64,000 nucleotides of DNA from NCBI GenBank assembly GCA_964548855.1, contig CAZJSR010000002.1, positions 28,702 through 92,701 of the forward strand, read 5' to 3'. Under the pieces are notes generated by a model. The model made no database searches. It was not told where the DNA came from and saw only the letters and a program-made list of their open reading frames with translations. The position numbers and the translations under genes are program-made. Shown piece by piece: positions 3,246 to 32,034 of the stretch; position 1 is the stretch's first letter; each line of letters begins with the position of its first letter. Source of the stretch: an uncultured Anaeroplasmataceae bacterium (GTDB lineage Bacteria; Bacillota_I; Bacilli_A; Acholeplasmatales; Anaeroplasmataceae).

Positions 3246-3261
3246 GTTAGCGTATGCTAAC
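3246..3261. other. Perfect 6-bp-stem hairpin/palindrome GTTAGC-GTAT-GCTAAC between ybaN-like gene and first MacB-like gene
   Basis: Read directly from the sequence. No T-run follows, so it is not a convincing terminator. It could be an operator or an RNA processing element. Confidence 0.3.
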
Positions 3262-3275
3262 TATAGGAATAGTAT

Positions 3276-5348
3276 ATGTCATTACTAAGATTAAATAATA
3301 TAGGTAAAATATATGATTCAAATAATATTTTAACTATTGGATTAAGAAATATTAATCTTGAATTTGATTTTAACGAATTTGTTACTATAGAAGGAGAAAG
3401 CGGTTCAGGTAAATCGACCCTTCTTAATGTTATTGGCGCAAACGATACTTATGAAGAAGGTGAAATGTATTTAAATGGTTGTGAAACATCTCATTTTACA
3501 AAGGCAGAATGGGAAAGTTATAGGCAAAAATATATTGCGACTATTTTTCAAGATTTTAATATTATTGAAAATCTAACGGTAGTTGAAAATATTGAACTTG
3601 CGCTCCTTAGAATTGAAGATAAAAAAATAAGAAGAAAGAAAGCTTTAGAGCTTATAAAAAAAGTAGGACTTATTAATCAATATAATCAAAAAGGTAGTAA
3701 ATTATCAGGTGGAGAAAAACAAAGAACAGTTATTGCACGCGCATTAGCTAAGGATGCGCCAATAATACTAGCTGATGAACCAACAGGGGCTTTAGATGTT
3801 AAATCATCACGAGAAATTGCAAAGTTACTTAAGGATGTATCGCAAGATAAACTTATAATAGTTGTAACTCATAATCCAGAGTTTTTTTCAGATTATGCAA
3901 CTCGTAGAGTAACTATATTTGACGGAAATGTTAAAGAAGATAATGTTATTGAAAAGAAAAACAGTGAAGTTAAAAAAGAAATATTTGATAGTATTAACAG
4001 TAGAAAAAAAGTATTAAGAGATACTATAAATATAGGAACTCTTAATTACAAAAGTAGACCTAAGTTTACAACTATGATGAGTTTTGCATTACTTGTTTGT
4101 GCCATAACTTTGTTTATTATTTTATCACTTGTAAAAAGTACGCTTATAAAACCCATTACTACTTTTATAGATGATGTTCCTATAAGTGGTAAAGTAATAG
4201 TTTTAAACGATAAAGGACTATTCACAGAAGAAGAACTTGATGAGACTTCTAATATTACAAATGCTGGGTTTTATTTACTAGATAATACGTATTCAGAATT
4301 TAAGGTGAATATTTCTAAAAAAAGTGGTATGATTTCATCTTATCAAGTTAATTGTGTTTATTCGCCATATCAATATAATTTAAAAAAAGGGAACGCTGTT
4401 TTAGAGATTCCGAGGTCGTATTTAAAAGACAAAGATAAGATTATTAATGTTTTTAAAAACGCTAATGTTGGAATTGATAATATCTCTGTTAAAACAACAC
4501 TTACAAATAATGATGTAATGCTTTATTTATCACATTATGATGTTACTAATAACGGAGTAAAAATAAAATCGATAAATACGACTATGAAGTTAGGAGAATT
4601 AGAGGTAAATGTATATGCATTTGAATCGTCTGATCTTTTAAATCAAGGTGAAATAATGCTTATTAATTCAAATACTTATCAAGCTACAAAATATAAAGCT
4701 ATATTTTCTTTAGATTCAACCAGGTTATATGATATTATCGATGATTCATTAATTGATGAGACAAAAAGTGGACTTATAGTTAAACTTAGTGAAGAAGATT
4801 ATAAAAAAGTATTTGAAACACCAATAACTACTTCAAATCAGTCAGCATTATATTTTGAAAACGATAAGTTAGCTATGAAATATTTGGATAATCTTCCGAC
4901 AGGTGTTATGGGAATGTTATCTAATAGTAAAGTATATGTAAATAATGCAGGAGAGATATATGAAATGAATATTATTTATTATATATCTCTAATTATGATT
5001 TGTATTCTTTTAGCCGCATTAATTAGTGTTATATTTAGCAGAAGTGTTAAGGTATTTCAAACTGATTATGCTGTTTATAGAACACTTGGAATATCAAATA
5101 AAATATCTTCACTATCACTTCATGTTCAAATGACGTTAATTTTTTTACCAACTATTATATTATTGCCTTTAATAAGTTTGATTACTGTTTTAATTCCAAA
5201 TCTTAATATTGGATTTATAACAATTGGTGATTATTTATTTATAGAAATAATGCTTTTATTAATTGTTCAATTTGTGGCATTCACTTTTAATAAATCCATA
5301 AATAGTCAATCAATAAGAAAAACACTTAGAAGGGGGATAAAAGGTTAA
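3276..5348 (+). CDS. MacB-architecture ABC protein: N-terminal ATPase fused to 4-TM FtsX-type permease with a ~280-aa extracytoplasmic domain
   Basis: ATPase motifs are intact: Walker A GESGSGKST, signature LSGGEKQRT, Walker B IILADEPTGALD, H-loop VTHN. TM1 is FTTMMSFALLVCAITLFIILSLV, followed by a long hydrophilic domain and three C-terminal TMs with an FtsX-like YRTLGIS motif. Confidence 0.85.
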   Translation: MSLLRLNNIGKIYDSNNILTIGLRNINLEFDFNEFVTIEGESGSGKSTLLNVIGANDTYEEGEMYLNGCETSHFTKAEWESYRQKYIATIFQDFNIIENLTVVENIELALLRIEDKKIRRKKALELIKKVGLINQYNQKGSKLSGGEKQRTVIARALAKDAPIILADEPTGALDVKSSREIAKLLKDVSQDKLIIVVTHNPEFFSDYATRRVTIFDGNVKEDNVIEKKNSEVKKEIFDSINSRKKVLRDTINIGTLNYKSRPKFTTMMSFALLVCAITLFIILSLVKSTLIKPITTFIDDVPISGKVIVLNDKGLFTEEELDETSNITNAGFYLLDNTYSEFKVNISKKSGMISSYQVNCVYSPYQYNLKKGNAVLEIPRSYLKDKDKIINVFKNANVGIDNISVKTTLTNNDVMLYLSHYDVTNNGVKIKSINTTMKLGELEVNVYAFESSDLLNQGEIMLINSNTYQATKYKAIFSLDSTRLYDIIDDSLIDETKSGLIVKLSEEDYKKVFETPITTSNQSALYFENDKLAMKYLDNLPTGVMGMLSNSKVYVNNAGEIYEMNIIYYISLIMICILLAALISVIFSRSVKVFQTDYAVYRTLGISNKISSLSLHVQMTLIFLPTIILLPLISLITVLIPNLNIGFITIGDYLFIEIMLLLIVQFVAFTFNKSINSQSIRKTLRRGIKG

Positions 5349-5349
5349 T

Positions 5350-7605
5350 ATGGCTAAGATAATAGTAGAAAATATAGTTAAAACGTTTAATAAACGGTCG
5401 AGAAATGCTAATAAAGTATTAAAGGGTGTTTCCTTCAGTCTTCCAGAAAAAGGTTTAGTATGTATTTTCGGAAAAAGCGGAAGTGGAAAAACTACACTTC
5501 TTAATATCATTGGTGGTCTTGAAAAGCCTGATATGGGAAAAGTATATATAGATGGTGTTGATACATCTGTTAATACTGATAAAATTAGGAATACTAAGAT
5601 TGGTTTTATATTTCAAAATTATTACCTTGAAAAAGGGTATACGGTAAAAGAAATTCTAAAAAATCAAATGATTATCGCAGGTTTTAAAGATGAAATTGAA
5701 ATAAATAGACGATGTGAAGAATCATTAAAACTCGTATCAATGGAACGCTTTAAAAACAAACAAGGTGATACGCTATCTGGTGGACAACAACAAAGAGTTG
5801 CGATAGCTAGAGCTATTTTAAAAGGTAGTGACATTATTCTAGCGGATGAGCCAACTGGAAATCTTGATGCTTTAAATACTATACAAGTTATGGAGATATT
5901 AAAAGAGATATCGAAAACTAAACTTGTTGTTATGGTAACACATGAGGTTACTTTAATTAAGAAATATGCTACTAGTAACATAATGATAGTAGATGGACAA
6001 TTAGTTGAAGATAGTAATATATCTGATTTAGATATAGCATCATCTACATATGATGTTAATAATAAAAATGAATTAAATAGCGATATGTTATTAACTTTTA
6101 AAGAAAGTACTTCAAAAAGAAATGGTAGATTATTTAGATTTAAGAATTTCTTTAAAAGAAACGACGAAAAAAAGTTTACAACGGCTAATATATTTAAACA
6201 AATATTTTTATTAGTAATATCGTTAGTTATATGTTTTTTATCATTTAAAATTTATGAAATATATAATTCTAAATTAGAAACAAAGCCAATTTTAGAAAAT
6301 ACGGTATATACTAATTTAAATTCTTATTCTGTATTACGTAGATGTGATGAAAGTAAGTATGAATGTGTAGATTTTTTTGATATAGAAATGAAAACAGGAA
6401 GTTTTAGTTATGCACAGTTATCTAGCCTTTCTGGTATAGAGGTAAAATATACACCTAAATCAATTGAACAGGATGAAATGCTTGATATTTTATATGGTAG
6501 AATGCCTGAAGGTAATGAAGTAGTTGTATCAAGGAAAATGGCTGAGGTTTTAAAAAAAGAATTTAGAGTTAAGGACTTAAATCAAGATAAGGCGATAACT
6601 CTAATGACATTCGATAGACAGTATAATATAGTTGGAATTACACCAGGAGATGAAAAAGAAATATATTTTAATAAAGTTGATTACGTTAATTTCTTAGGAG
6701 TATATAATAAAATATCATTTGATGATAACGGACATATTTTATTTAAAGATAGTTATAGTGAAATGTCTTATAGTGCTCAAATTCTTTTATATGATGATGT
6801 ATTAGATAATGATAAAGTTTTAGTTGAGCTGAATCGAAATTCTCTTTATAAAATGATGTCAAATACAAAAGAGGCTGATTACGAGGTTGATAAAACTAAT
6901 TCAGTTTTAAAAACAAAACCGTATTCTATACAACTATCAGGAAGTAAGGTTTATGTAGAACGTTTTGAAATTACAAGAGATGTTATGCAAACAGACATTA
7001 GAATATATGTAAACAAAAATGTGTTAAAAAATATATTTGTATATATTTCACCAAATCTTGATGTATTGTCATTAGGTGAAAATCAATGTTATTTTGAAAT
7101 AAAAGCTAGCAATGATAATAGTTTTACATCTTTAAAAAAAGAACTTAGAGATTTAGGAGTAACAACAGTAAATATTAGTAGAATATATGAAATGAATAGT
7201 AATGAATTAAAAGATTCTATGAAAGGTGAATTGTATCTTTTTATTGTAGTTATTATTTTATTGTTAATTATTTACTTCTTTATTGAGAAATCAGGAAGTA
7301 TAAAAAATAGTAAAGAATATGGTATTTATCGCGCAATAGGAGTTAATAAAGGAAATTTATTATTTAAAGAAACAGTTAACGCTATTTTAAATAATATTTT
7401 AAGTTATTTTATCTTCTTTGCAATAACGGTAATTTTAATTTCAATTAGATATTGGGTAATGAATATTTCATTCTTAGAATTTATAGGAATATCATTGATA
7501 AATTTTGTGATTTCATCAATCATTATGATTTTATTGTCGATTATTCCATACTTGTTTGTCTTGACAAATAGTCCTTCAGAGATTTTGGCAAGATATGATA
7601 TATAG
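5350..7605 (+). CDS. MacB-architecture ABC protein (ATPase-FtsX fusion), partner of 3276..5348
   Basis: ATPase motifs are intact: Walker A GKSGSGKTT, signature LSGGQQQRV, Walker B IILADEPTGNLD, H-loop VTHE. It has a single TM, a ~330-aa extracytoplasmic domain and a C-terminal FtsX-like 3-TM bundle (YGIYRAIGVNKG). Starts 1 nt after the upstream stop. Confidence 0.85.
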   Translation: MAKIIVENIVKTFNKRSRNANKVLKGVSFSLPEKGLVCIFGKSGSGKTTLLNIIGGLEKPDMGKVYIDGVDTSVNTDKIRNTKIGFIFQNYYLEKGYTVKEILKNQMIIAGFKDEIEINRRCEESLKLVSMERFKNKQGDTLSGGQQQRVAIARAILKGSDIILADEPTGNLDALNTIQVMEILKEISKTKLVVMVTHEVTLIKKYATSNIMIVDGQLVEDSNISDLDIASSTYDVNNKNELNSDMLLTFKESTSKRNGRLFRFKNFFKRNDEKKFTTANIFKQIFLLVISLVICFLSFKIYEIYNSKLETKPILENTVYTNLNSYSVLRRCDESKYECVDFFDIEMKTGSFSYAQLSSLSGIEVKYTPKSIEQDEMLDILYGRMPEGNEVVVSRKMAEVLKKEFRVKDLNQDKAITLMTFDRQYNIVGITPGDEKEIYFNKVDYVNFLGVYNKISFDDNGHILFKDSYSEMSYSAQILLYDDVLDNDKVLVELNRNSLYKMMSNTKEADYEVDKTNSVLKTKPYSIQLSGSKVYVERFEITRDVMQTDIRIYVNKNVLKNIFVYISPNLDVLSLGENQCYFEIKASNDNSFTSLKKELRDLGVTTVNISRIYEMNSNELKDSMKGELYLFIVVIILLLIIYFFIEKSGSIKNSKEYGIYRAIGVNKGNLLFKETVNAILNNILSYFIFFAITVILISIRYWVMNISFLEFIGISLINFVISSIIMILLSIIPYLFVLTNSPSEILARYDI

Positions 7606-7625
7606 TTAATTAGAGGAGATTTATT

Positions 7626-10600
7626 ATGGTAAAGGTTAAGAAAAGTTTTTTTACAGTAGTAATGTCAATTTTACTTATTGTATTTATGTATATGCTTTGT
7701 GCATGTAAGAGTAAAGAATTTACAGTTACATTTAATGTTTTAGGAAAAACACAAACTGTAGAAGTTATAGATGGAAAAGTAGAATTTCCATCAGACCCTG
7801 AAAAAGAATATTATCAATTTAGAGGATGGTATAAAACTGATACTTTTTTAGAAGGTAGTGAATTTACAAAGGATACAGAAGTTAAAGAAAATTTAACAGT
7901 ATACGCTTATTTCGCACCTATTTATGTTGGAATTTCAGTTAATGGTAGTAAAACTACTGATATTAAATTAGAAGATTTAAAAACAAAAACAGAAGAATAT
8001 AAATCAGATGCAAGTAGTAAGAATCTTACATTTGATGGGTGGTATATAGATCAAGGATACACAACTAAATATAGTTCACAAGATGCAGATAATCTTTATG
8101 CTAGATATATGGCAGAAGTAGTGTTTGATAATGGATATGAGGTTGTTTATAAAACATTAGTGCAAACTGAAACTTCAGTTTCAAGACCGGAAGATTCATT
8201 AATTGTAAAGAATTATATGGATAGTGAAGATATATCATTTGAAACAGAAGATGGAAATGAATATGATTTTAATTCTATTATTCAAGCAAATACTAAAATC
8301 AATGTTAAATGGAAGAGCCCGTATTTAATTTATAAGAAGATAGAAGGTACTACGAATTATGCCGCTATTGGATTTGAAAGTGAACATGCATCAGAAGTAA
8401 CTCAGTTTCCGTGTTTATCGATTTTATCAAAAAACGTAAATATTAAAGATACTGCAGGAAACAGATTAAACGCAAATGTTGTTGCCCTAGATGCAGATGG
8501 AATATCTTTTGATTCTTATCGTTTTAATAGTTGCATAGAAGGTGCGAAGAAGATTATTTTCGCAGAAGGTATTGAACGTATATCATCATTACAAGGTAAT
8601 GTAGCTACTATTGTTGAGGAAATAGTATTTCCAAAATCACTTAAAATTTTAGAAAAATCAATTTGGTATTTTGATAATTTAAAATCAATCGAATTACCAT
8701 CTAATGTAGAAGTAATAATAGATTGTTTTTGGAAACATTTTATGGATTATACTAATGGATTATATCGAGGTAAATATGAATATGATTTTGATATTGTTAT
8801 TCCAAGTAGTGTAAAAAGTTTAGCTTTGGTGCCACTTAATGTAGTTTTTTCTAATGATTCAAATTATTATATTGAGGACAATCAAATATATAAACTTGAC
8901 AATGGTAGCGTCTCATTAGTATCTATTATGCAAGATAGTGTATCAGATGGAAAATTATACATTAAAGAAGGTGTAGAAAAAATACATGTTGGTATTCTTA
9001 ATAAATTAGAGTTTGATTATTTGTATTTACCAGGCACAATATCAGGTGTTTTATATACTGCCCCAAATACAGATTATGATATGATTTATGATGGTAAATA
9101 TTTAACAGACCACGAGTATATAACTTCTCCATCATCTTCTAAAATGCATACTGATGCATATACTATTTTAGATAATTTAGAATCTATTTCATATGTTATT
9201 TTTAATACAAGTTCATATCCTTTCCAATCTAATGAATTATTTAAAGGAGAGGTTAATAATAATATTTTAACATATGACCGTATGGATGAAACTAAATTAG
9301 TGTTTATTGCACAGGTATTAGAAGGTAATATTAATTTAAATATTGATTATAGAAATTCAATGATCGATGATAGTAAAAATAGTGTTGTTTTAACTATTCC
9401 TACAAACACAGTTTTAGATGAATATGAATTATTAGATGAAATAGGTATAACAAGTGAAGCTCTTGGAATGAAAATAAAGGTAACTTCAATTACTCAGTTT
9501 GGTGAAGACTATGTTTTTGGACAAAAGGATTGTAACCAATATATAAGCATTGTATATGAATATGATGTATTAGGATTTACGTATGAAGAAAATACTGATT
9601 TAAAATATACTGTAACAGGATTTGATCAAACAACAGCGCAAGAACTAGAAAATGGAACGTATCTTGTGATTATTCCGGATGTTTTAAATGATATAGAAAT
9701 TACAGAGATTTCTGAAAATGCTTTTAAAGATAACAATAGAATATCAAAAGTATATATTGGTAAATATGTAAAAGTAATTGGAAGTCAAGCATTTATGAAC
9801 ACATCAAATTTAGAATATTTATCAATTACACCAGGAAGTCTTGAAACAATAGAACAAAGTGCATTTGAGAATTTAGGATGTATTTATGAAGATGGAAAAT
9901 GGAATAGAAATCCTGAAATGCCTAAATTTGAGTTTACAAATTTTACAGGAAGAACAGCATATGTCTATATTCCGCTATCTAAGTTAAAAACAGTAAAGCC
10001 CTATGCATTCAAGTCAATGGCAATTTCAACTTTTATGCCAGTAAAGGGAGAGGAAAGTCGTACTCTTGCGGAATTTAATTATGGTGAAGATGTTATGAAT
10101 GGCAGTGCAGTTATAGGAGAGTTCTATTATTTAGTTGATGTTAATAGCGACATTATAGCACTTGCTAGATACAAAGATATTGAACAAGTAGAACGTATTA
10201 GTTGTATTGACACTTCAAAGAGTGTAATGGTTAATATGTGGGATGTAGAAGTAGTTGCGACTGTAAGTGGTGAAAAGAGTGATAATACATTTAGTGTAGG
10301 TTTTAGTTTACGTACTTTCGCATCATTCATGGGAGAATCTAGTGATCTTAATGTTTTACGCTTTGAATTAATGGAAGGTTCAGTGTATTATCGTGATTCT
10401 GTTTGTTTTGGTATTGTAAGCAAAGTTCATAAAAATGCTTTTACAGATATGGGTATATTCTCTAATAAAGGTTATGCAACTATTGAGTATTATAATCGTG
10501 ATGGAGATGTATGGATTACTAAAGAAGATATAGTAGAACAAAATAGTTTAATATTTGAAGATGGATGGTGGGAAGGTATTAAGAATAGTGAAAATACTGC

Positions 10601-10646
10601 CGTTTTAGAAGATAAAGTAGAGGGTTCTACTAGTTTATTAGTTTAA
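7626..10646 (+). CDS. Large surface lipoprotein with InlB-B (Listeria-Bacteroides, Flg_new-type) repeats and BspA-type leucine-rich repeats
   Basis: Signal peptide with lipobox-like LCAC|K. There are repeated F(R/D)GWY motifs (YQFRGWYKTDTF, LTFDGWYIDQGYTT). BspA/LRR_5-like segments are present (ISENAFKDNNRISKVYIGKYVKVIGSQAFMNTSNLEYLSI; FPKSLKILEKSIWYFDNLKSIELP). Length is 1006 aa. Confidence 0.75.
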   Translation: MVKVKKSFFTVVMSILLIVFMYMLCACKSKEFTVTFNVLGKTQTVEVIDGKVEFPSDPEKEYYQFRGWYKTDTFLEGSEFTKDTEVKENLTVYAYFAPIYVGISVNGSKTTDIKLEDLKTKTEEYKSDASSKNLTFDGWYIDQGYTTKYSSQDADNLYARYMAEVVFDNGYEVVYKTLVQTETSVSRPEDSLIVKNYMDSEDISFETEDGNEYDFNSIIQANTKINVKWKSPYLIYKKIEGTTNYAAIGFESEHASEVTQFPCLSILSKNVNIKDTAGNRLNANVVALDADGISFDSYRFNSCIEGAKKIIFAEGIERISSLQGNVATIVEEIVFPKSLKILEKSIWYFDNLKSIELPSNVEVIIDCFWKHFMDYTNGLYRGKYEYDFDIVIPSSVKSLALVPLNVVFSNDSNYYIEDNQIYKLDNGSVSLVSIMQDSVSDGKLYIKEGVEKIHVGILNKLEFDYLYLPGTISGVLYTAPNTDYDMIYDGKYLTDHEYITSPSSSKMHTDAYTILDNLESISYVIFNTSSYPFQSNELFKGEVNNNILTYDRMDETKLVFIAQVLEGNINLNIDYRNSMIDDSKNSVVLTIPTNTVLDEYELLDEIGITSEALGMKIKVTSITQFGEDYVFGQKDCNQYISIVYEYDVLGFTYEENTDLKYTVTGFDQTTAQELENGTYLVIIPDVLNDIEITEISENAFKDNNRISKVYIGKYVKVIGSQAFMNTSNLEYLSITPGSLETIEQSAFENLGCIYEDGKWNRNPEMPKFEFTNFTGRTAYVYIPLSKLKTVKPYAFKSMAISTFMPVKGEESRTLAEFNYGEDVMNGSAVIGEFYYLVDVNSDIIALARYKDIEQVERISCIDTSKSVMVNMWDVEVVATVSGEKSDNTFSVGFSLRTFASFMGESSDLNVLRFELMEGSVYYRDSVCFGIVSKVHKNAFTDMGIFSNKGYATIEYYNRDGDVWITKEDIVEQNSLIFEDGWWEGIKNSENTAVLEDKVEGSTSLLV

Positions 10647-10675
10647 TTAATGTGTGCTAAGTGAGGACAACGCAA

Positions 10676-13600
10676 ATGAAGAAGTTTTTAACGATACTAT
10701 TATCTTGTGTAATGTTGTTGTTTATAGTCACATCATGTAATTCGAATAATCAGTTTAAAACGCCACAAGAAGCACTTGAGAATGTTTATGGTAATCAAGA
10801 ATATAAAATATCATTTATGTCAGAGGGACTATCAGTCCCTCTAGACAGTATGAACTATACTGCGAATAATATGCCAAAACTGCCTGTACCTGAAAAGATA
10901 GGGTATATATTTTCAGGTTGGTATTTAGATGAGAAACTTACAATTCCTTATACTGATGGTATCTTGTATTTATATATGAAAGATGTAACATTATATCCAA
11001 AATGGGAAAAAGAAAGTTTTTTAGCAAACGGAAAGTATGATATAGAATATGAAGCTAATATTATAGAAGATAGTGTTGTCAAAGGACTTAAAACTGATGA
11101 TTATGGCGGATATATTGATTTTACTGAATGTTTAGTAAAAGATGAAATATATCTAGAAAAGAGCGATGATAAATTTCTTTTAAAGTTACAATATGATACA
11201 AAAGTTACAATTCCAATGTTTACCAATGCAGGTGATGTATTTACTGTGAAAATATCATCATTAATGGATAGTTCTATTGTTATAAGTGATAGGATTAATT
11301 CACTTGCTGATCCTAAAAAAACAGTATTTATTGATTTAACAAATTTTTCTTTGGAGGATACATTATATCTAGATATTCAAACTACTAATTGGTTTACTGA
11401 TGGATTATCTGATTCTTCAAGATTAGAGACTGTAACAAGGTATACAGTTGCGATAAATTTTACAAAAATTATAGGATTTTCATCATCTTATGTAGACACT
11501 AGTGTGCCACTTGAAAAAGGATATTATCTTGTCAAGTCATATTATGCTAAACAAGATAATAGTGCTACGATGGCAGATTCTTTTAATCCTGTATATTCAT
11601 ACCTTTATTCTGATGGTAACGAAAACTATAAATTGATTAAACAAAATATTGCGTATGCAGGACTAACATCTTCATCAGGTATTACTCTTGAAAATACAAA
11701 GGATAATTATTACAATCGCTTAATGTCGTTTATACCTATTCAGTTATTTTATGAGATTACTAATGTACCTGAAACAAAAGATGTGGTTACTTCAGATTAT
11801 TATCCTTTAACATATGGCGCAAAATATTATGGTGATTATGCAATGGAATATCATGCAGATAGTGGTAAGTTTTATAATATATATGATTTAGGAAGTAATT
11901 TAGACAGTAGTTATATGACAATGAATGCTGTAACGGGTTTTATGGAAGTAGCTTCTGGGATGGGATTTAATAATCTAATATTAAGAATTGATTATAAACA
12001 TATGACAAAATTAGCAGAGGTTGATTATGAACCTCTAAGCGGGGATAGTTTTCAATATGAAACAAACATTGAATATTATCCAGGAAGCACAAATGATCTT
12101 GTTAAGCGTGATATGAATTACGACCTAATGAAAGAAAATGGCTTAGTTACTGAAATGGTTAATTTTTATTTCACTGCACCATTTTTAGGACTATCTACAA
12201 ATGATTATAAACAATGTAGTAGTCGAATTTGTGTTACTCCAACAAAAGGTACTAATTCTCAAACTATATCAGATTCACGTTACCGTATGGCATATTTTAC
12301 TGTAAATCATCAAATCTATGGATATGATTATAAATCAGAAGATAAATTATATGCGGATATTATGGGTGTTACATCAATGTCTGATGATGGTATGCGTTAT
12401 AATCGTGAGATAAAAAATGGAAAAAGTTGTGAAGTAGGAGATGTTATTAGACTATCCGATATATATAATACAAAATGTGATTCAAAAACAGATTTCTCAT
12501 CTGTTTTATGGACTGTCTACAATATGAAAGATGGTAAGGTTTTATTTGATGATAAAGTAAATTTAAAAAATTCAACATTTATATTTGAAAAAGATGTTGC
12601 GGTTTTATTTGAGAATAAAACTAGGGATGGTACAAAATATTCTCTTGTTGAATTGGCTTTATATGAAGAACCAAAGGTGACAATTAAAAATAATGATAAA
12701 TATCCCTACGATCCACAAGCTACATATGTAGTAGGAGATAAAGTATCTTTTCCATACGTTACTTATTCATGGATGGGGAATATTGCGAATATGATAGATT
12801 CTTTTTTTGAAGATCCAACATCTACAAGTGATTCTTCAAGTATAAACTTACTTCGTAGTGCGATATATAAAGAAGTTGATGGAGTATATGTATGGTATGA
12901 TGGTGTTGGATATAATGAAACTACCTTTGTGGTTCCGTCAGAGAAATTTATAGTGGTATATGAGTTTACAAATATTTATGGTGAAATATATCACTATTCT
13001 ATTCCTTTTGTTTCTAATAGTCAGTCACGTTATAGTATAGTTGATAATAATGACAATTTAATTGATGAAGGAACTATAAAGTATAATTCAGAAGGAAAGA
13101 GATCATCTATTTCAGTTTCACTTGAATCAAAAAGAATAAATAAAGAAAATTATAATGATATTTTATTTTCATCTTATAAATTAAATATTTCTGGATTTAC
13201 TCGCGATTTTAAGTTGTCAGAATATAGTATAGTAACAGATACTATAGAAGAAGATGTATTAGTTATAGATGATAGTGATATTTGTAATATATTATGGGAT
13301 AAAATAAAGACACAAAAATATGCGGCTATTAAACTAGTATATAAAATAGGTGACGATACAATTAGTGCTACATATTACTATAATATGAATTTTAGTGGTA
13401 AGATGACTTGTGAATTAATGGATTATAATGATTATTTTACAAATCAAGAATATAGTTTTGTTGTGCCATCTTTATATGATTTAGAAGGAAATTTCCTAAC
13501 GAATGGCTCAGCATCTTGTCCATATCGCTATGCAAAATTAGATAAAGATAAATATCAATATAAATTATTATTTACTCAATCAGGATGTTATGACATTACT

Positions 13601-14431
13601 CAAAATTATTATATAGGTTCTATTAATCTTCATTTTACTCAAACTATTTATGTTTGGAATGATAATGTTGATATTTCGATAACTTATATAACGGATCTAA
13701 GAAGACCATTCAATGATGGTTCTTTGGAGCGTACAGTTAAATATAATCTTAAAGAAGCAATATATTCTTTAAAAAAGACTGGATTTGATGAGTGTGTTCC
13801 TGCAGGGGATATTTTATATGGTTGGTCATTAAAAGAAGGAAGTTATGATTGTGAAGTAAGAAGTGGAAATGTAATAGAAAACTTTATTTCTAAGTATAAT
13901 TCAAAATCACTTATTTTATACGCAATATGGGATAGTGGTCTTGAATTAACAGTAAATAGAGGAGATGGTATTACATATACTAAAAAGTATTATTTAGATT
14001 CGTTTATTAGATATAGTATATCGTCTTCGGATTTTGAAGTTATAACTTTAGATGGCTATAAGAATACTGGATGGATTTGTGATATTTGGAATGGTTGTAT
14101 GATTACATCAATAAATGTTAGTCCATCAAGAATCGATTGGGAAAATGCTACATTTATAGTTAATCCTGTGTTTAAAAAAGAATTTACAGTAAAATATGAG
14201 GTTAACAGCATCTATTCAAATTCTTTCTTTAGAAATGAGATAGTATTAGATGGAAATTACATTAGTTCTGTATTTAACAAAGTTAATGTTAATTGTAAAG
14301 TATTAGGATATAAATTTGTTGGATGGTATATTAAAGGTGATGAAACACAAACAGTAATAGATTTAGAAATGTATCCTATAACAAAAGATGTTATATTTGT
14401 TGCGAAGTTTGTGCCTGATGTGGAGGTATAA
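10676..14431 (+). CDS. Giant surface lipoprotein with N- and C-terminal InlB-B (Flg_new-type) repeats
   Basis: MKKFLTILLSCVMLLFIVTSC|NSN is a classic lipoprotein signal peptide. ATG 10676 is preferred over GTG 10661 because a GAGGA Shine-Dalgarno lies upstream. Repeat motifs: YIFSGWYLDEKLTIPY, ILYGWSLKEGS, YKNTGWICD, YKFVGWYIKGDETQ. The ~1000-aa central region had no motif I recognised. Confidence 0.75.
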   Translation: MKKFLTILLSCVMLLFIVTSCNSNNQFKTPQEALENVYGNQEYKISFMSEGLSVPLDSMNYTANNMPKLPVPEKIGYIFSGWYLDEKLTIPYTDGILYLYMKDVTLYPKWEKESFLANGKYDIEYEANIIEDSVVKGLKTDDYGGYIDFTECLVKDEIYLEKSDDKFLLKLQYDTKVTIPMFTNAGDVFTVKISSLMDSSIVISDRINSLADPKKTVFIDLTNFSLEDTLYLDIQTTNWFTDGLSDSSRLETVTRYTVAINFTKIIGFSSSYVDTSVPLEKGYYLVKSYYAKQDNSATMADSFNPVYSYLYSDGNENYKLIKQNIAYAGLTSSSGITLENTKDNYYNRLMSFIPIQLFYEITNVPETKDVVTSDYYPLTYGAKYYGDYAMEYHADSGKFYNIYDLGSNLDSSYMTMNAVTGFMEVASGMGFNNLILRIDYKHMTKLAEVDYEPLSGDSFQYETNIEYYPGSTNDLVKRDMNYDLMKENGLVTEMVNFYFTAPFLGLSTNDYKQCSSRICVTPTKGTNSQTISDSRYRMAYFTVNHQIYGYDYKSEDKLYADIMGVTSMSDDGMRYNREIKNGKSCEVGDVIRLSDIYNTKCDSKTDFSSVLWTVYNMKDGKVLFDDKVNLKNSTFIFEKDVAVLFENKTRDGTKYSLVELALYEEPKVTIKNNDKYPYDPQATYVVGDKVSFPYVTYSWMGNIANMIDSFFEDPTSTSDSSSINLLRSAIYKEVDGVYVWYDGVGYNETTFVVPSEKFIVVYEFTNIYGEIYHYSIPFVSNSQSRYSIVDNNDNLIDEGTIKYNSEGKRSSISVSLESKRINKENYNDILFSSYKLNISGFTRDFKLSEYSIVTDTIEEDVLVIDDSDICNILWDKIKTQKYAAIKLVYKIGDDTISATYYYNMNFSGKMTCELMDYNDYFTNQEYSFVVPSLYDLEGNFLTNGSASCPYRYAKLDKDKYQYKLLFTQSGCYDITQNYYIGSINLHFTQTIYVWNDNVDISITYITDLRRPFNDGSLERTVKYNLKEAIYSLKKTGFDECVPAGDILYGWSLKEGSYDCEVRSGNVIENFISKYNSKSLILYAIWDSGLELTVNRGDGITYTKKYYLDSFIRYSISSSDFEVITLDGYKNTGWICDIWNGCMITSINVSPSRIDWENATFIVNPVFKKEFTVKYEVNSIYSNSFFRNEIVLDGNYISSVFNKVNVNCKVLGYKFVGWYIKGDETQTVIDLEMYPITKDVIFVAKFVPDVEV

Positions 14432-14432
14432 A

Positions 14433-15683
14433 ATGTTAAAGAATGTGATAAAAAAAGTTATCATGATCGTGTTTATGTTGTTTTTAATATTGCCTATTTT
14501 AACAAATATTAATGCCATATCTTTGTTAAATGATGGATTATATGAAGTCTCTATAAATCTAAGTGGTCTTAAAATGGGTAAAGATAATTTTACAAGTAAG
14601 GCTAATTTAGAAAAGAAAAATGAATATTATTATCTAACGTTTGGACATAGCGCTAGTGTTTCTGATATGAAACTTGATTCTGGTAATAAACAGGTAGGCT
14701 ATACATGTTTTAAAAAAGATGATTGGACGATGTATACTTATACATTAAATGAAACAAGAGTTAATGATAGTCTTTCGTTTAAAGCATTTATTAAAGCTAT
14801 GAATAAAGATGTTAATTTTAATATTTCACTTGATCTTGATAATGCAAAATATATAGGAGAAGTATTAGAAGATGATGAAAGACCAGCACCTTATGTTCCG
14901 GTATTTTCTTCAAGTTCGTCATCTAAGTATACTTTAAAAGTAGGCACAATATTTCCAATTCCAAAATTGACGGCATGTCTTGGAGATGAGATATGTGATA
15001 TAAAAACTACGGCATGGTATAATATGAATCTTGTAGAAATAAAAGATGGGAAATTAATATTAGAAAATATCGGGACATATGAACTAGTTTTTAAAGCAAC
15101 AAGTCCATCTTATAAAACATCTTTAAATAACGATACATTTAGTGAATTGAAAATTGTAATAGAATCAACTAATTCTGGTAATGAAATAGTTAAGGTGGAA
15201 GATATAAATAATGTTTTACCTCTAAATACTAATATCATCGTAGGTTCTTTAGATAGCAGTGCTTTAGAATATAATGAAGCCAAAAAATGTATTGCTAAAA
15301 TTGCGGATAACTTTCAAGTTTTCTCACTAGAATTAGTAGACGATAATGGGAATCAAATTAGTATAGAAGATTCTTTACTATTATCATTTAGAGTAGATGA
15401 TTATTTTGATAGAACTAAAGTAGAAGTATATTATATGGATGATAATGGTCTTAAATTAATTAATTGTGATAATTATGGTAGATATATAAGCATAGAAAGT
15501 TTAAATACTGGTATTTATATTGTATGTGTACCAGGGGTAGCATTTGTGATGCCAATGTGGGGTTATGTTTTAATATTATGTGGATGGTTGATAGTTATTG
15601 GTCTATTAATAACATTGATTATTATTCTAGTAAAAAAGAAAAATAAAAGAGATAAAAATATATTAGGAGCTGTAGAACAATAA
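14433..15683 (+). CDS. Cell-surface protein: signal peptide, NEAT-like N-terminal domain, Ig-like middle region, C-terminal TM anchor
   Basis: GGAGGT Shine-Dalgarno 6 nt upstream of ATG 14433, so the 14388 extension is rejected. Signal peptide is MLKNVIKKVIMIVFMLFLILPILTNINA. The segment LNDGLYEVSINL...KKNEYYYLTFGHSASVSDMKLD...AFIKAMNKDVNFNISLDLD follows the NEAT-domain pattern as I recall it. C-terminal TM is WGYVLILCGWLIVIGLLITLIIILV followed by KKKNKRDK. Confidence 0.7.
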   Translation: MLKNVIKKVIMIVFMLFLILPILTNINAISLLNDGLYEVSINLSGLKMGKDNFTSKANLEKKNEYYYLTFGHSASVSDMKLDSGNKQVGYTCFKKDDWTMYTYTLNETRVNDSLSFKAFIKAMNKDVNFNISLDLDNAKYIGEVLEDDERPAPYVPVFSSSSSSKYTLKVGTIFPIPKLTACLGDEICDIKTTAWYNMNLVEIKDGKLILENIGTYELVFKATSPSYKTSLNNDTFSELKIVIESTNSGNEIVKVEDINNVLPLNTNIIVGSLDSSALEYNEAKKCIAKIADNFQVFSLELVDDNGNQISIEDSLLLSFRVDDYFDRTKVEVYYMDDNGLKLINCDNYGRYISIESLNTGIYIVCVPGVAFVMPMWGYVLILCGWLIVIGLLITLIIILVKKKNKRDKNILGAVEQ

Positions 15684-15722
15684 ATTCTATAAGTTGTATT
15701 TTTAATGTAACTATTAGAATCA

Positions 15723-15741
15723 GGAGCTACAGCTCCTTTTT
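15723..15741 (+). terminator. Rho-independent terminator ending the ABC-lipoprotein operon
   Basis: GGAGC-TACA-GCTCC stem-loop followed by TTTTT, 40 nt after the stop at 15683. Confidence 0.7.
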
Positions 15742-15793
15742 ATGTTTTATTTTGTATTTTTTTTTATTTCACATATTATAAATTATATTTAAA

Positions 15794-15802
15794 TGATATA
15801 AT
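15794..15802 (+). promoter_or_regulatory. Extended -10 promoter element (TGaTATAAT) for the alarmone synthetase/ABC operon
   Basis: TGATATAAT read directly, about 30 nt upstream of ATG 15834 and downstream of the terminator at 15723. Confidence 0.5.
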
Positions 15803-15833
15803 TTACTTGAATAATACGATGGGTGGTAAATAT

Positions 15834-16529
15834 ATGGATTATAATAAAGGACTGATTATAGAGAAATTTAAAGCATTAATGGATGAAACTTTATCAGGTG
15901 CAAATAGACTTGAGATAATTAAAGAAATTACAATGCCTTTTCAACAAATGATGATGTCATATCAATGTGCGATTAAAGAAATCGAAACTAAACTAGAAGT
16001 TCTTAATTTAGAATATTCGCTTAATAATGAACAAAATCCAATTGAATCTATTAAATCTAGAATTAAATCAATAGAAAGTATTGTTGATAAGATTAAAAGA
16101 AAAAAAATTGACATTACTGTAGAAAATGTTGAAGAAAAGATAATGGATATCGCAGGTATTAGAGTTATAGTAAATTTTCCAGAGGATGTATATAAAATAA
16201 GAGATGGATTATTATTACAAGACGATATATATTTAATAGAAGAGAAAGATTATATAAAAAATCCAAAAGAAAATGGGTATAGATCTCTTCATTTAATTGT
16301 TAAAATTCCTATTTTTTTATCATCAGGGAAGAAATTTGTTCCAGTTGAAATTCAAATTAGAACAATTGCGATGAATTTTTGGGCATCGCTTGAACATCAA
16401 TTAAGATATAAGAAAAATATTGATAATAAAGAATCTATTTCTTTATCTTTAAAACAACTTGCATGTGAATCTGCAAATTTAGACTTGAGAATGGAAATGT
16501 TAAAAAAAGAAATAAATAATAAAAATTAG
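15834..16529 (+). CDS. Small alarmone synthetase (RelP/RelQ-type GTP pyrophosphokinase, RelA_SpoT synthetase domain only)
   Basis: Motifs DIAGIRVIVNF, ENGYRSLHLIV and VEIQIRTIAMNFWASLEHQLRYK match the RelP/RelQ (YwaC/YjbM) synthetase core. Size is ~231 aa from ATG 15834 (GGGTGGT Shine-Dalgarno); the ORF-track TTG at 15807 is less likely. Confidence 0.85.
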   Translation: MDYNKGLIIEKFKALMDETLSGANRLEIIKEITMPFQQMMMSYQCAIKEIETKLEVLNLEYSLNNEQNPIESIKSRIKSIESIVDKIKRKKIDITVENVEEKIMDIAGIRVIVNFPEDVYKIRDGLLLQDDIYLIEEKDYIKNPKENGYRSLHLIVKIPIFLSSGKKFVPVEIQIRTIAMNFWASLEHQLRYKKNIDNKESISLSLKQLACESANLDLRMEMLKKEINNKN

Positions 16530-16538
16530 GGAGAATTT

Positions 16539-19070: not shown

Positions 19071-19080
19071 GGAGGATTTT

Positions 19081-21642
19081 ATGATTGAATTAAAAAATGT
19101 ATCTAAGATATATAAAGATAAAAACAAACGTAAAGTCCTTGCTTTAAATGATGTATCATTAAAACTACCTGATAGTGGCATGGTGTTTATTTTTGGTAAA
19201 AGTGGTAGTGGAAAATCTACAATGTTAAATTTGATTAGTGGTCTAGATAAGGTAACTAGTGGTGATATTATTGTAGATAATAAGAAATTCAGTGAGTTTA
19301 AAGAAGGAGATTTTGATGGTTATAGGGGAAGTTATTTAGGTATTATCTTTCAAGATTATCATCTTCTAGAAGAACTCACTGTAAGAGAAAATCTCGCTCT
19401 TGCAGGAGATTTAGCTAACGAAACGCCTGATTTATTATCCTTACTTAAAGAAGTAGAATTAAATGAGAGTTATTTAGATAAATATCCTTGCCAATTATCA
19501 GGTGGTGAACGTCAAAGAGTTGCGATTGCACGTACTTTAGGGAAAAAATCAAAAGTAATTTTAGCGGACGAACCAACAGGAAATCTTGATTTAGCTAACC
19601 GTATTCAAATATTTGATATTCTACATAAAATATCAAAGGATGTTTTAGTTTTGGTTGTATCCCATAATACTATTGATGCCGCAAATTATGCTGATAGAAT
19701 TATTACATTAGATAATGGTATGGTAATATATGATAAAATAAGAAAACCTGAATATGATAATAATTTTAAGGTAGTTGATTCTAAGGCATATTTGCCGCAC
19801 AATAAAAATTTAAAACAAGAAGAAATAAACTCGCTATATAATGTATCTAGTGTTGTTCAAATGGACGATGGTTTAATTGATAATATAGAAGATATTAAAG
19901 TAACAAAAGAAGCTTCATTTGTTTCAGGTAAATTAGAACGTAAGAAATTTTTAAAATTATTTAAAAGTTTCTTTAAAAAAAGAAAATTATCTAAAGTTCT
20001 TGTGATATTTATATCAGCTGTATTAATTTCATTATTCTATGTATTTCAATCATATTGCAGTTTTGACTCGAATGACATACAAAAAAATGAGCTTATCAAT
20101 AACAATGAGGTATCTCTTGCGCTTAGAAAAGTAGAATATGTAGGAAATGGTAATGTTACGTCTGATAGTTTGAAGGAAATATCATATGAAGATTATAATG
20201 CGTTTAAGAATACTGACTATAAAGGTAACGTTTTTAAATTATATAATACATGTATAAATTTTGAGGTTTCAGATATTAGTAATCAAAAATATATAACACC
20301 TGAAGAAAATACCGCAAGTTTTTATGCACTTGAATCTTATGGAGTATTAGAGTGTAATGAGAAATTTTTAATATCAGTTTATGGTAAAAATAACAAATTA
20401 GATATTCTTGCTGAAAGTAAAGAAAAAAAAGAGTATGGAATAGTCTTAACTGATTATTTAGCGGATGGAATACTTCATTATAATAAAAGTATAAAATCTT
20501 ATGATGATTTAGTTGGGTTATTTGATTCTGAGTATAATAAAATATATGTAAATATGATTATTAATACAGGTTATAAAGAAAAATATAGTAGTCTTATTAG
20601 TATATATGAAAGATTATTTGATTTAGATAAATCAAACGATCCTAATTTAGATGAGATATATAATGATAGTATGTATATGAGTTTTTTATACGAAGTTAAT
20701 AAATATTTAGCCGTTGCGTATTCTTTTAGTGATAATTATTACGAAACACTTCTTGAAAATAATTTTTTAGATACCATACATTCAGCTACAATATCTAATA
20801 TTTATAATGGTAAAACCTATAAGTCTTTTAATTATTATAAAATAAAAAGAGATTATTCACTAAAAGATAATGAAATGGTTGTAAGTAGTGAATACTATAA
20901 AACTATGTTTGACTGTTCAGATAGTGATGTTGAAAATTTTATTCCTCATAGTGTGAAATTTATCATTAGAAATGATAATGGCAATTATGAAAAAGAATTT
21001 TTTATAAAAGAAATTGTATCATATAAAGGTAGATATGTATTTGTAAGTAGTGATGTGTTTGATGATATTATACCTAAAACGATTATAAATTATGGAATGT
21101 ATTTCGATAATGTTAAAGATATAGATAAAGTTTTAAACATTAAAGGAAATGAATATTTATATTTATCTTTAACTGTAGAAGGTGTAGGGCTTATTGAAAA
21201 GTCTATAAAAATCTTTGGTGATTTTTTAATGATTTTCGCCGTCTTATTCCTATGTATTTGTGTTTTATACTTAGTATCTTTTGGATATAAAAACATCAAG
21301 CAAAATATTTATGAAATAAGTATTTTAGTATCTCTTGGAGGAAGAAAAAAAGATGTTAGTAAAATATTTATTTTAGATACTTTAGTAGTTGGAGTGGGTA
21401 TTATTATTCTTTCAACAATTGGAATGTATATTGCCTCAGTATCTTCAAATAGTATATTAGTTAATGCGTTTGAAAGTAGATTTAGTGTTAATTTATATGA
21501 TCTAAAAATAATTGATTATAAGTTTAATCAAGTAGTATTAGATTTGTTTATTACTGTTGTGATAGTATATGTTTCTGCGATAATTCCGACATTCTTTATC
21601 AGAAGAATGAGTCTTACAGATGCCCTTAAGGCTAAAGAATAA
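19081..21642 (+). CDS. MacB-architecture ABC protein (ATPase-FtsX fusion), tandem paralog of 16539..19070
   Basis: Intact Walker A GKSGSGKST, signature LSGGERQRV, Walker B VILADEPTGNLD and H-loop VSHN. It shares extracytoplasmic motifs with the upstream gene (DYKGNVFKLYN vs NYKGNVYKLNN; YGIVLTDYLADG vs YGILVTDYVADS; NTGYKEKYSSLISIYE vs KTNYKEKYKDIISLYE). Confidence 0.85.
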   Translation: MIELKNVSKIYKDKNKRKVLALNDVSLKLPDSGMVFIFGKSGSGKSTMLNLISGLDKVTSGDIIVDNKKFSEFKEGDFDGYRGSYLGIIFQDYHLLEELTVRENLALAGDLANETPDLLSLLKEVELNESYLDKYPCQLSGGERQRVAIARTLGKKSKVILADEPTGNLDLANRIQIFDILHKISKDVLVLVVSHNTIDAANYADRIITLDNGMVIYDKIRKPEYDNNFKVVDSKAYLPHNKNLKQEEINSLYNVSSVVQMDDGLIDNIEDIKVTKEASFVSGKLERKKFLKLFKSFFKKRKLSKVLVIFISAVLISLFYVFQSYCSFDSNDIQKNELINNNEVSLALRKVEYVGNGNVTSDSLKEISYEDYNAFKNTDYKGNVFKLYNTCINFEVSDISNQKYITPEENTASFYALESYGVLECNEKFLISVYGKNNKLDILAESKEKKEYGIVLTDYLADGILHYNKSIKSYDDLVGLFDSEYNKIYVNMIINTGYKEKYSSLISIYERLFDLDKSNDPNLDEIYNDSMYMSFLYEVNKYLAVAYSFSDNYYETLLENNFLDTIHSATISNIYNGKTYKSFNYYKIKRDYSLKDNEMVVSSEYYKTMFDCSDSDVENFIPHSVKFIIRNDNGNYEKEFFIKEIVSYKGRYVFVSSDVFDDIIPKTIINYGMYFDNVKDIDKVLNIKGNEYLYLSLTVEGVGLIEKSIKIFGDFLMIFAVLFLCICVLYLVSFGYKNIKQNIYEISILVSLGGRKKDVSKIFILDTLVVGVGIIILSTIGMYIASVSSNSILVNAFESRFSVNLYDLKIIDYKFNQVVLDLFITVVIVYVSAIIPTFFIRRMSLTDALKAKE

Positions 21643-21647
21643 AGAAA

Positions 21648-21677
21648 AATAGACATTTTTATGTCTATTTTTTTTTG
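21648..21677. terminator. Bidirectional rho-independent terminator between the convergent ABC gene and the Crp/Fnr gene
   Basis: AAATAGACAT-TTTT-ATGTCTATTT stem followed by a T-run on the + strand and preceded by an A-rich tract. It overlaps the stop of the minus-strand gene. Confidence 0.7.
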
Positions 21678-22348: not shown

Positions 22349-22368
22349 CTTTCATATTTTTATTATAC

Positions 22369-22374
22369 TATAAT
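22369..22374 (+). promoter_or_regulatory. Candidate -10 hexamer (TATAAT) of the nrdD promoter
   Basis: TATAAT lies 37 nt upstream of the nrdD ATG. The -35 region is poor, consistent with an activator-dependent promoter. Confidence 0.4.
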
Positions 22375-22410
22375 ACATATGCGATGTAAAGAAGGAAAGG
22401 GAGGATTAGA

Positions 22411-32004: not shown

Positions 32005-32034
32005 GTTATATAATCAATTTAAGGAGTGATAAAT

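Follow-up and report, generated by a model that had tools for sequence, protein, structure and literature searches.

An invariant operon of paired ATP-binding cassette proteins, giant lipoproteins and a predicted NEAT-fold surface protein in uncultured gut Clostridia

In the genome of an uncultured Anaeroplasmataceae bacterium (assembly GCA_964548855.1, contig CAZJSR010000002.1), positions 3276-21642 of a window of 64,000 nucleotides carry a series of genes that a first-pass annotation, made from the sequence letters, had treated as one 18-kb envelope system, with two pairs of ATP-binding cassette (ABC) proteins bracketing lipoproteins and an alarmone synthetase in between. By comparing about 150 related loci in total, we show that this 18-kb stretch is made up of three independent units: a cassette operon, A1-A2-LP1-LP2-SP (3246-15745), a small alarmone synthetase gene (SAS) and a second ABC pair, B1/B2. 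The cassette encodes two fused ATPase-permeases (A1 and A2), two giant lipoproteins (LP1 and LP2) and a surface protein anchored by a transmembrane (TM) helix (SP). It is an invariant operon in a clade of uncultured gut Clostridia, and the left two-thirds of the stretch is therefore a genuine, conserved and undescribed module. Regarding its function, we favor a reading for which the evidence is evenly poised, namely that the cassette is an iron-regulated surface module in which a heterodimeric type VII ABC system powers the capture of heme or another iron source, with SAS and B1/B2 standing apart from it.

Conservation of the five-gene cassette

Relatives of the cassette are widespread in gut metagenomes. 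A metagenome scan with the C-terminal half of A1 returned 80 more loci, 48-64% identical and mostly labelled human gut metagenome, while more than 1000 relatives were obtained for the C-terminal half of A2; the top 120 of them are about 63% identical, 754 aa long and derived from a very abundant gut species. One A2 orthologue (P0270) is indexed in 3,444 collection blocks and in at least 1,000 contigs, under the source names "Candidatus Fimenecus sp." or "Christensenellaceae bacterium." In its genomic context (L064-66), genes for a DtxR-like protein, a helix-turn-helix (HTH) protein, CydD-like and CydC-like proteins and an energy-coupling factor (ECF) transporter (S, T, AA') are followed by A1 (690 aa), A2 (754 aa), LP1 (1009 aa, with Flg_new and LRR_5 domains), LP2 (1276 aa, with Flg_new) and SP (417 aa), and then by MntR-like, WYL and LexA genes; neither SAS nor a B-type gene is present in this context. 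All five cassette genes of the window are collinear with those of L064, at identities of 68% for A1, 68% for A2, 39% for LP1, 37% for LP2 and 47% for SP, as are the CydDC-like genes (66-72%).

Four further lineages, reached through divergent SP homologues (L067/68, L069, L070/71 and L075), also contain the five genes, with order and sizes retained. Across the intact relatives, identity spans 48-68% for the ABC proteins versus 37-47% for the lipoproteins and SP, with order and sizes kept throughout. The genes downstream of the cassette differ lineage by lineage, the neighbors in L067, L069, L070 and L075 being CNNM; BAAT/LCM/PEMT; trigger factor/Lon; and LCM/TetR, respectively. A DtxR-WYL-LexA group was considered as an obligatory downstream partner and rejected, as it occurs in two lineages only.

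Counting only loci with enough sequence on the relevant side, A1 is followed by A2 in 81 of 81 loci, by LP1 in 58 of 61, by LP2 in 56 of 59 and by SP in 9 of 9. Three loci depart from this pattern, L088 by a deletion, L104 by a rearrangement and L131 by an insertion with a recombinase, and in each of them A2 is also truncated or altered; no intact A1A2 pair lacking its lipoproteins was seen among the loci examined. Because order and sizes are kept in every intact relative examined, LP1, LP2 and SP are credible partners of A1 and A2. The first-pass annotation had proposed that the lipoproteins and the anchored protein serve the ABC proteins, and had named conservation of the linkage in relatives as the test of its idea. 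Both points are supported for A1-A2-LP1-LP2-SP, whereas the linkage of SAS-B1-B2 is not conserved and a partnership with B1/B2 is not supported.

The three exceptional loci are natural variants of the Fimenecus-type locus in which A2 through SP have been lost or interrupted. The L088 deletion is joined to the downstream MntR-like gene, and the L131 insertion carries a serine recombinase. Since these variants disrupt A2-SP, the cassette is dispensable in some strains.

The surface protein SP

The SP family comprises 146 matches that are 39-48% identical, 402-444 aa long and fixed in architecture. SP had been described as NEAT-like from its sequence. At the level of the window protein this description falls short, with 15.9 bits against the Pfam NEAT model (PF05031, cutoff 32.8), and it is the family and the fold that bear it out. 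Among 38 relatives at E<=0.1, 24 match NEAT (best 1.6e-6), 13 match HemeBinding_Shp and 13 match an immunoglobulin-like (Ig-like) surface domain. The AlphaFold2 model (predicted local distance difference test, pLDDT, 85.9; predicted template-modelling score, pTM, 0.71) consists of a signal helix, a NEAT beta-sandwich at about residues 33-142, a further pair of beta-sandwich domains and a TM helix (375-415), and it displays the eight strands and the 3-10 lip helix that define the NEAT sandwich. Foldseek searches of the Protein Data Bank (PDB) retrieved IsdH, IsdB, IsdX1, Hbp2-N2, IsdX2-N5, IsdA, IsdC and Shp at a probability of 1.00, with template-modelling scores of 0.64 for IsdX1 (root-mean-square deviation, rmsd, 3.9), 0.69 for Hbp2-N2 (rmsd 3.4) and 0.57 for Shp (2q7a). 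SP profiles compared with the PDB matched nothing relevant.

In the places of the canonical NEAT motifs, SP carries MGxDNF in the lip helix and AxINAM in the beta7-beta8 loop. Two methionines, Met48 of the 3-10 lip helix and Met123 of the beta7-beta8 loop, are invariant in 38 sequences, and Met123 is flanked by two conserved Phe residues; the model places both methionines at the lip and beta7/beta8 elements. NEAT domains of the "Clostridial group" are known to lack YXXXY and to have a conserved Met in the beta7-beta8 loop together with two conserved Phe residues (PMC4143258). ChtD and ChtE of C. perfringens lack the Tyr residues and still bind heme (PMC4143258, PMC5026354), and the heme ligands of Shp are Met66 and Met153 (PMC5026354). 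On the basis of the model and the family alignment, SP is a NEAT-fold protein with a Met-lined pocket, predicted to be of the heme-binding type.

Outside the pocket, the most conserved stretch of SP is a juxtamembrane motif, CVPGVAFxMPMWGY (residues ~360-378), which is nearly invariant in the family and more conserved than the two Ig-like domains. This motif may represent a partner-docking or sorting signal.

Regulatory context of the cassette

The region upstream of A1 is also conserved. A CydC-like gene is found there in 35 of 36 loci, a CydD-like gene in 31 of 31, an ECF ATPase in 46 of 49 and an HTH129-type regulator in 21 of 30. In the window, a DUF454 gene holds the place that the ECF transporter (S, T, AA') has in the relatives. 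The L064 orthologue of the CydD-like gene has CydD as its best NCBIfam match (396 bits; cutoff 435). A contig of the window's own organism (L157) continues for 5.5 kb beyond the left edge of the window. Its interval 1458-1907 carries the gene for a DtxR/MntR-like regulator (126 aa; 56% identity to HTH129), which immediately precedes the CydD-like gene. The larger conserved set thus consists of the regulator, the CydDC-like pair, an ECF transporter or DUF454 protein, and the cassette. The first-pass annotation missed the upstream regulator, the CydDC-like pair, the shared operator and the iron/heme theme.

The putative operator is a palindrome, GTTAGC-N4-GCTAAC, of which GTTAGCGTATGCTAAC is the single perfect copy in 64 kb. 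In 61 of 71 loci, the 400 nt preceding A1 contain one to three copies, compared with a chance expectation of ~0.015 per locus; both half-sites are conserved, and only the spacer of 4 nt varies among loci. The palindrome also stands before the regulator gene with which the CydDC-like operon begins, and in L157 two palindromes are located between the promoter of the 126-aa regulator and its start codon. When up to one mismatch was allowed in 2.24 Mb of fetched loci, the palindrome occurred almost only before A1, regulators, CydD-like genes, a few small genes and feoA/feoB. The genes linked in this way share the arrangement of a DtxR/MntR-family regulon, in which the regulator is encoded nearby and the same palindrome stands before the target operons, although the linked regulators are divergent members of that family.

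The feo copies occur in L021, an unrelated Clostridia metagenome-assembled genome (MAG) that had been fetched for its B-type ABC gene. Its palindromes at 4311-4326 and 4668-4683 precede genes for FeoA (4346-4564; 50.6 bits) and FeoB (4718-6721; FeoB_N, 187.8 bits), and the first of them lies just downstream of a TTGACA/TATAAT promoter. These copies suggest an iron box common to gut Clostridia and, because the operator also fronts iron-uptake genes, the cassette probably handles heme or iron.

The palindrome is also present before a gene for a Cys-rich protein of 147 aa (L106:2291 and L118:2089). Its counterpart at L066:989-1432 is annotated YgbA_NO, and in some lineages this gene lies between the regulator and the CydD-like gene.

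The ABC proteins and their lipoproteins

All four ABC proteins carry an N-terminal ABC_tran domain (102-116 bits) in which Walker A, Q-loop, signature, Walker B and H-loop are intact. Hydropathy analysis places TM1 at 268-331 in all of them, followed by a large extracytoplasmic domain (~283, 327, 374 and 393 aa in A1, A2, B1 and B2, respectively) and three C-terminal TM helices. The first-pass annotation had assigned the four proteins one layout ending in an FtsX bundle. The ATPase and the topology agree with this description, while the Pfam FtsX model is exceeded by B2 alone (37.4 bits), with B1 at 25.3 against a cutoff of 25.5 and the C-terminal halves of A1 and A2 matching no Pfam model, even at E<=10. 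The MacB_PCD model matched none of the four proteins in Pfam, and no Porter or Sabre signature was recognized by sequence.

B1 and B2 are paralogues, 37% identical over their full length, whereas the resemblance of A1 to A2, and of either to the B pair, is confined to the ATPase. A motif after TM2, EYGIYRAIG or DYAVYRTLG, is common to A1/A2 and the B family, and the TM bundle of A1 is highly conserved. The top NCBIfam matches of all four ATPases are L_ocin_972_ABC, LolD, FtsE and MacB; for B2, the sole protein of the four whose ATPase was searched against the PDB, the top matches are MJ0796, LolD and MacB. Because the B-family profile matches LolF (1e-10), YtrF (5e-10), LolE and MacB in the PDB, the B pair is firmly of type VII. 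A1 and A2 are probably the two halves of a heterodimeric type VII ABC system.

Alternatively, A1 and A2 could extract or position LP1 and LP2 for surface display in a Lol-like manner, with SP as an accessory and any iron or heme link being regulatory only or absent. Such a role would fit the strict co-inheritance of the ABC pair with two lipoproteins whose lipoboxes are conserved, the two unlike permease halves, which recall LolC/LolE, and the finding that LolF and LolE give the best alignments with the related B family. However, A1 and A2 themselves have no detectable similarity to Lol proteins, and neither the invariant pocket residues of SP nor the operator common to feoAB and the CydDC-like operon would be explained. 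As we also know of no need for lipoprotein extraction in monoderm bacteria, we consider this role unlikely.

LP1 and LP2 correspond to what had been reported from the sequence: LP1, with 1006 aa, contains Flg_new and LRR_5, and LP2, with 1251 aa from its ATG, contains Flg_new. Both have a conserved lipobox, which is kept in the orthologues. Leucine-rich repeats (LRR) of the BspA type and Flg_new domains are both characteristic of adhesins. The cassette could accordingly encode a host- or glycan-binding adhesin complex, made up of the two lipoproteins and SP as an Ig-like anchored protein, that is co-transcribed with an ABC system of the antimicrobial-peptide or bacteriocin type and has no role in heme handling, a view in keeping with the domains of LP1 and LP2, with their fast evolution and with the best NCBIfam match of the ATPases, a "putative bacteriocin export" subfamily. 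That match, however, is under the subfamily cutoff and generic for the MacB clade, and a NEAT fold with invariant Met residues, DtxR-family regulators and an operator shared with feoAB would be left without an explanation, which makes this alternative improbable.

Separateness of B1/B2 and the alarmone synthetase

Searching exhaustively with profiles of the extracytoplasmic and TM regions of the two B proteins delineated a family of 702 cluster representatives (204 below 1e-30), almost all of which have 860-880 aa and match over their entire length; a word-indexed search with the C-terminal half of B2 had found 7 proteins only. Scanning a single genome for each GTDB species gave 58 loci. Every one came from an uncultured gut MAG, of animal or human origin, assigned to Anaeroplasmataceae, Bacilli, Clostridia, Oscillospiraceae and Christensenellales. 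The B-type gene stands alone in most Clostridia, or occurs as a tandem pair (L005-L010, L020, L034, L039, L048 and L055). In none of these 58 loci is it adjoined by SAS, an A-type ABC gene or a homologue of LP1, LP2 or SP; the neighbors are unrelated housekeeping genes. A further B-type pair (L072) has amidase, DegV and UPRTase genes on its flanks, again with no SAS, Flg_new/LRR lipoprotein or A-type ABC gene adjoining the pair. Clustering of the neighbors within 5 kb of B-type genes yielded one recurrent open reading frame (ORF) of ~300 aa, present at 11 loci, which is taken to be shared synteny among related MAGs. The family also has an invariant extracytoplasmic motif, (I/V)(I/L)TDYxAD(S/G).

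The identification of SAS as a small alarmone synthetase is upheld: its 231 aa contain a single RelA_SpoT domain (PF04607, 120 bits, residues 84-204) and neither hydrolase nor regulatory domains. Against the NCBIfam YjbM-type model it scores 182 bits, under the equivalog cutoff of 320. In the other lineages examined, SAS was not found adjoining the cassette or B-type ABC genes, and its membership in either ABC system was rejected. Since B-type loci elsewhere lack SAS, the SAS-B1-B2 arrangement belongs to this organism only.

The reading of all eight genes as a single envelope system of 18 kb, whose two ABC pairs would act on the lipoproteins while SAS couples the system to envelope stress, must be weighed against this distribution. 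The genes are co-oriented and tightly packed, the stretch looks accessory, and SAS, B1 and B2 follow one another at just 9-10 nt (SAS/B1, 9 nt; B1/B2, 10 nt). Yet a terminator and a promoter lie between the two halves, other lineages have neither SAS nor B-type ABC genes beside the cassette, and B-type loci have neither SAS nor lipoproteins of the LP1/LP2 type. The one-system reading fails because the linkage is not conserved in relatives, and we regard it as highly improbable. The proposed alarmone link is an accident of this genome, as SAS-B1-B2 is downstream of the cassette in no other lineage, and so is the bracketing of cargo genes by two ABC pairs, given that B-type loci have neither A-type ABC genes nor lipoproteins. 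SAS, B1 and B2 merely share a promoter in this organism. SAS is a stand-alone unit, and B1/B2 belong to a separate type VII family related to LolF, YtrF, LolE and MacB, without conserved gene partners, found only in uncultured gut Firmicutes.

A possible role in heme or iron capture

Under the preferred reading of the cassette as an iron-regulated capture module, abundant iron, or a related signal, would lead to its repression through the operator. Once expressed, the cassette would build a surface machine in which LP1 and LP2, through their LRR and Flg_new domains, bind an iron or heme source, and SP would take up heme in its Met-lined NEAT pocket, as Shp or the clostridial NEAT proteins do. 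The A1/A2 heterodimer would supply ATP-driven mechanical work, stripping the ligand or handing it over between the lipoproteins, SP and the membrane, and the juxtamembrane motif of SP would be the likely docking site. Alternatively, in the manner of HrtBA, A1/A2 might insert heme into the outer leaflet or withdraw it from there. Type VII ABC systems act on the outer face of the membrane, without transport across it. Because the known systems work on the outer face, extraction or hand-over of ligand or lipoprotein is favored over import.

Several observations weigh against this reading. No heme importer of the IsdEF/HtsABC type (a type II ABC importer with a binding lipoprotein), heme oxygenase, sortase or LPXTG anchor was found among the cassette genes or their conserved neighbors, and we know of no type VII ABC system that serves uptake. 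The canonical NEAT motifs SxxxxY and YxxxY are absent from SP in the family alignment. The assignment of an FtsX-type bundle to A1/A2 is weak, as it relies on topology and on profile-profile matches of TM2-TM4 to the B family (hhalign probabilities of 64%, 89% and 80%); the A1-family profile has no match in the PDB, and the AlphaFold2 model of A2, built from 12 close sequences, is unusable (pLDDT 44.6). On the regulatory side, the link between the palindrome and feoA/feoB is seen at one locus, L021, and the palindrome could act as an RNA hairpin instead of a DNA operator. The universally linked HTH129/p126 regulator subfamily lacks the metal-ligand motif EExACRxEH; it has DAxNATCAxS in that place and a conserved HLxxHCGT, the EExACRxEH motif being retained only by the extra MntR-like regulators of the Fimenecus-type loci. 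Because the motif is replaced, the 126-aa regulator may sense something other than Mn or Fe.

The components could also be arranged for detoxification, with A1/A2 pulling heme from the outer leaflet and passing it to SP and the lipoproteins as an extracellular sink. SP, a predicted NEAT fold anchored near the membrane, and the CydDC-like pair, a heme/thiol exporter type that always adjoins the cassette, would suit this arrangement. The known Hrt systems are heme-induced, through HssRS, ChrSA, HrtR or FhtR, whereas the cassette operator is shared with feoAB; moreover, HrtB is small and separate from HrtA, and efflux needs no pair of lipoproteins of more than 1000 aa. Although HrtBA offers the precedent of a type VII ABC system that extracts membrane heme (PMC9271180), we judge detoxification quite unlikely.

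A more specific form of the capture reading is possible but doubtful. It holds that the type VII heterodimer is an ATP-driven motor in a new capture pathway of dominant uncultured human-gut Clostridia. Carriers of host or dietary origin, bound on LP1/LP2, would be stripped of their heme or iron, which would pass through a bis-Met NEAT relay, independently of sortase and under a new DtxR-family sensor and operator.

Features of the window

The window has a G+C content of ~27%, and its uncultured gut bacterium also occurs in several Logan assemblies. The ORF inventory lists eight genes in 3276-21642, one fewer than the nine of the first-pass annotation, whose gene coordinates and common orientation otherwise match the ORF positions (Table 1). 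The intergenic gaps are 1 nt for A1/A2, 20 nt for A2/LP1, 14-29 nt for LP1/LP2 and 1 nt for LP2/SP. As had been noted, this packing is interrupted only once near 15.7 kb, at 15684-15833, by a hairpin (15722-15737) with a T-run followed by an extended -10 element (15794-15802).

Table 1. Coordinates of the cassette, its upstream neighbors and the SAS-B1-B2 genes in the window
Feature	Position	Strand	Remarks
CydD-like gene (5' end cut by window)	55-1116	+	ABC exporter; conserved upstream neighbor of the cassette
CydC-like gene	1113-2798	+	ABC exporter; NCBIfam CydC best match, 299 bits (cutoff 329)
DUF454 membrane protein	2811-3221	+	Pfam DUF454, 110 bits
Palindrome GTTAGCGTATGCTAAC, putative operator ("iron box")	3246-3261	.	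14 nt before A1 start codon
A1, fused ATPase-permease, 690 aa	3276-5348	+	ATPase, TM1, ~283-aa extracytoplasmic domain, 3 TMs
A2, fused ATPase-permease, 751 aa	5350-7605	+	~327-aa extracytoplasmic domain
LP1, lipoprotein, 1006 aa	7626-10646	+	Flg_new and BspA-type LRR_5 (Pfam)
LP2, lipoprotein, 1251 aa from ATG	10676-14431	+	Flg_new (Pfam); large middle part without model match
SP, TM-anchored surface protein, 416 aa	14433-15683	+	Signal peptide, predicted NEAT-fold domain, two more beta-sandwiches, TM, basic tail
Intrinsic terminator of cassette transcript	15722-15745	+	6-bp GC-rich stem (15722-15737), then T-run
Extended -10 promoter element TGaTATAAT for SAS-B1-B2	15794-15802	+	Read from sequence
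SAS, small alarmone synthetase, 231 aa	15834-16529	+	Pfam RelA_SpoT, 120 bits
B1, fused type VII ABC protein, 843 aa	16539-19070	+	B2 paralogue
B2, fused type VII ABC protein, 853 aa	19081-21642	+	Pfam FtsX, 37.4 bits

The starts of the longest ORFs, GTG 10661 for LP2 and ATG 14388 for SP, are probably wrong; ATG 10676 and ATG 14433 are favored because of the gene calls on sister contigs and the positions of the signal peptides. A database entry of 703 aa with Flg_new (P0277) appears to be the end of LP2 fused to SP.

To the right of B2, at 21665-24573, a Crp/Fnr-type regulator on the minus strand (cNMP_binding, HTH_Crp_2) is divergent from a 720-aa ORF that may encode an anaerobic ribonucleotide reductase; both are also found in L001-L003. 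Genes for second-messenger enzymes, namely a DAC-domain c-di-AMP cyclase, a GGDEF protein and an EAL protein, occupy 32026-34587 and 48088-50013, all inside a span of ~18 kb, and together with SAS make the window rich in nucleotide signalling genes. A T-box leader at 45606-45850 (94.5 bits, just over the gathering score) lies upstream of an ORF at 45995-47245.

Significance

The carriers of the cassette are very abundant uncultured Clostridia of the human gut, and to our knowledge almost nothing is known of heme or iron acquisition or tolerance in such strict anaerobes. NEAT systems have so far, as far as we know, been studied in pathogens, where sortases and conventional importers invariably accompany them. 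If true, the coupling of a NEAT relay to a heterodimeric type VII ABC system and a pair of lipoproteins exceeding 1000 aa would widen the known uses of MacB-type mechanotransmission. The GTTAGC-N4-GCTAAC palindrome and the divergent DtxR-like regulator also provide a handle for mapping an iron-type regulon in these genomes. As a lesson of method, tight co-oriented packing in a single genome had fused three unrelated units.

Comparison with known systems

A literature search on MacB, FtsX and lipoproteins returned nothing resembling a type VII ABC heterodimer combined with two giant lipoproteins and a NEAT relay. We found no precedent for this combination without sortase, type II importer and oxygenase, although each pairing within it has one.

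A close counterpart of several parts is the sia system of S. pyogenes (Shr, Shp, HtsABC) with HupY. The DtxR-family repressor MtsR controls Shr, Shp and the LRR protein HupY (PMC6593403), so that a regulator of this family and an LRR surface receptor (Shr, HupY) are shared features. A small NEAT-like relay with a C-terminal TM helix is another: in Shp a pair of Met residues ligates the heme (PMC5026354), and the two invariant methionines of SP fall on the equivalent structural elements. In contrast to sia, the cassette has two fused type VII ABC proteins in place of a type II importer and its binding lipoprotein, its receptors are Flg_new lipoproteins of more than 1000 aa instead of LPXTG NEAT proteins, and its operator sequence differs.

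NEAT and LRR modules occur together in IlsA, Hal and Shr (PMC2777315, PMC9945957). IlsA of B. cereus and Hal of B. anthracis resemble the cassette in bringing the two modules together at the cell surface, where they serve to capture iron sources, namely heme, hemoglobin and ferritin (PMC2777315). In the cassette, however, the modules reside on separate proteins of one operon that is coupled to an ABC pair, and the anchors are a lipid and a TM helix instead of S-layer homology (SLH) domains or sortase. ChtD and ChtE, which bind heme and are iron-regulated (PMC4143258, PMC5026354), share with SP a NEAT domain without YXXXY and a beta7-beta8 Met flanked by two Phe residues. SP differs from them in also lacking SxxxxY, replaced by MGxDNF, and in scoring below the Pfam cutoff, and the Cht locus, which lies behind a Fur box, includes a sortase as well as a conventional importer.

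HrtBA is a type VII ABC system that handles heme at the outer leaflet with no transmembrane transport (PMC9271180). It differs from the cassette in that HrtB and HrtA are separate, the complex is homodimeric with a small extracytoplasmic domain, expression is heme-induced and there are no lipoprotein or NEAT partners. With MacB, LolCDE, LolDF and YtrEF, the cassette proteins share the ATPase clade and the succession of TM1, a large extracytoplasmic domain and three TM helices; their fused layout is like that of MacB, and the pair of unlike halves is like LolC/LolE. They differ in having no adaptor, LolA or TolC partner, and the extracytoplasmic domains of A1 and A2 match nothing known.

Finally, LhaSTA is an ECF-type heme importer within the isd (NEAT) locus of S. 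lugdunensis (PMC7299338). The relatives of the cassette likewise have an ECF transporter, immediately between the CydDC-like genes and A1, whereas the window carries a DUF454 gene in place of the ECF genes.

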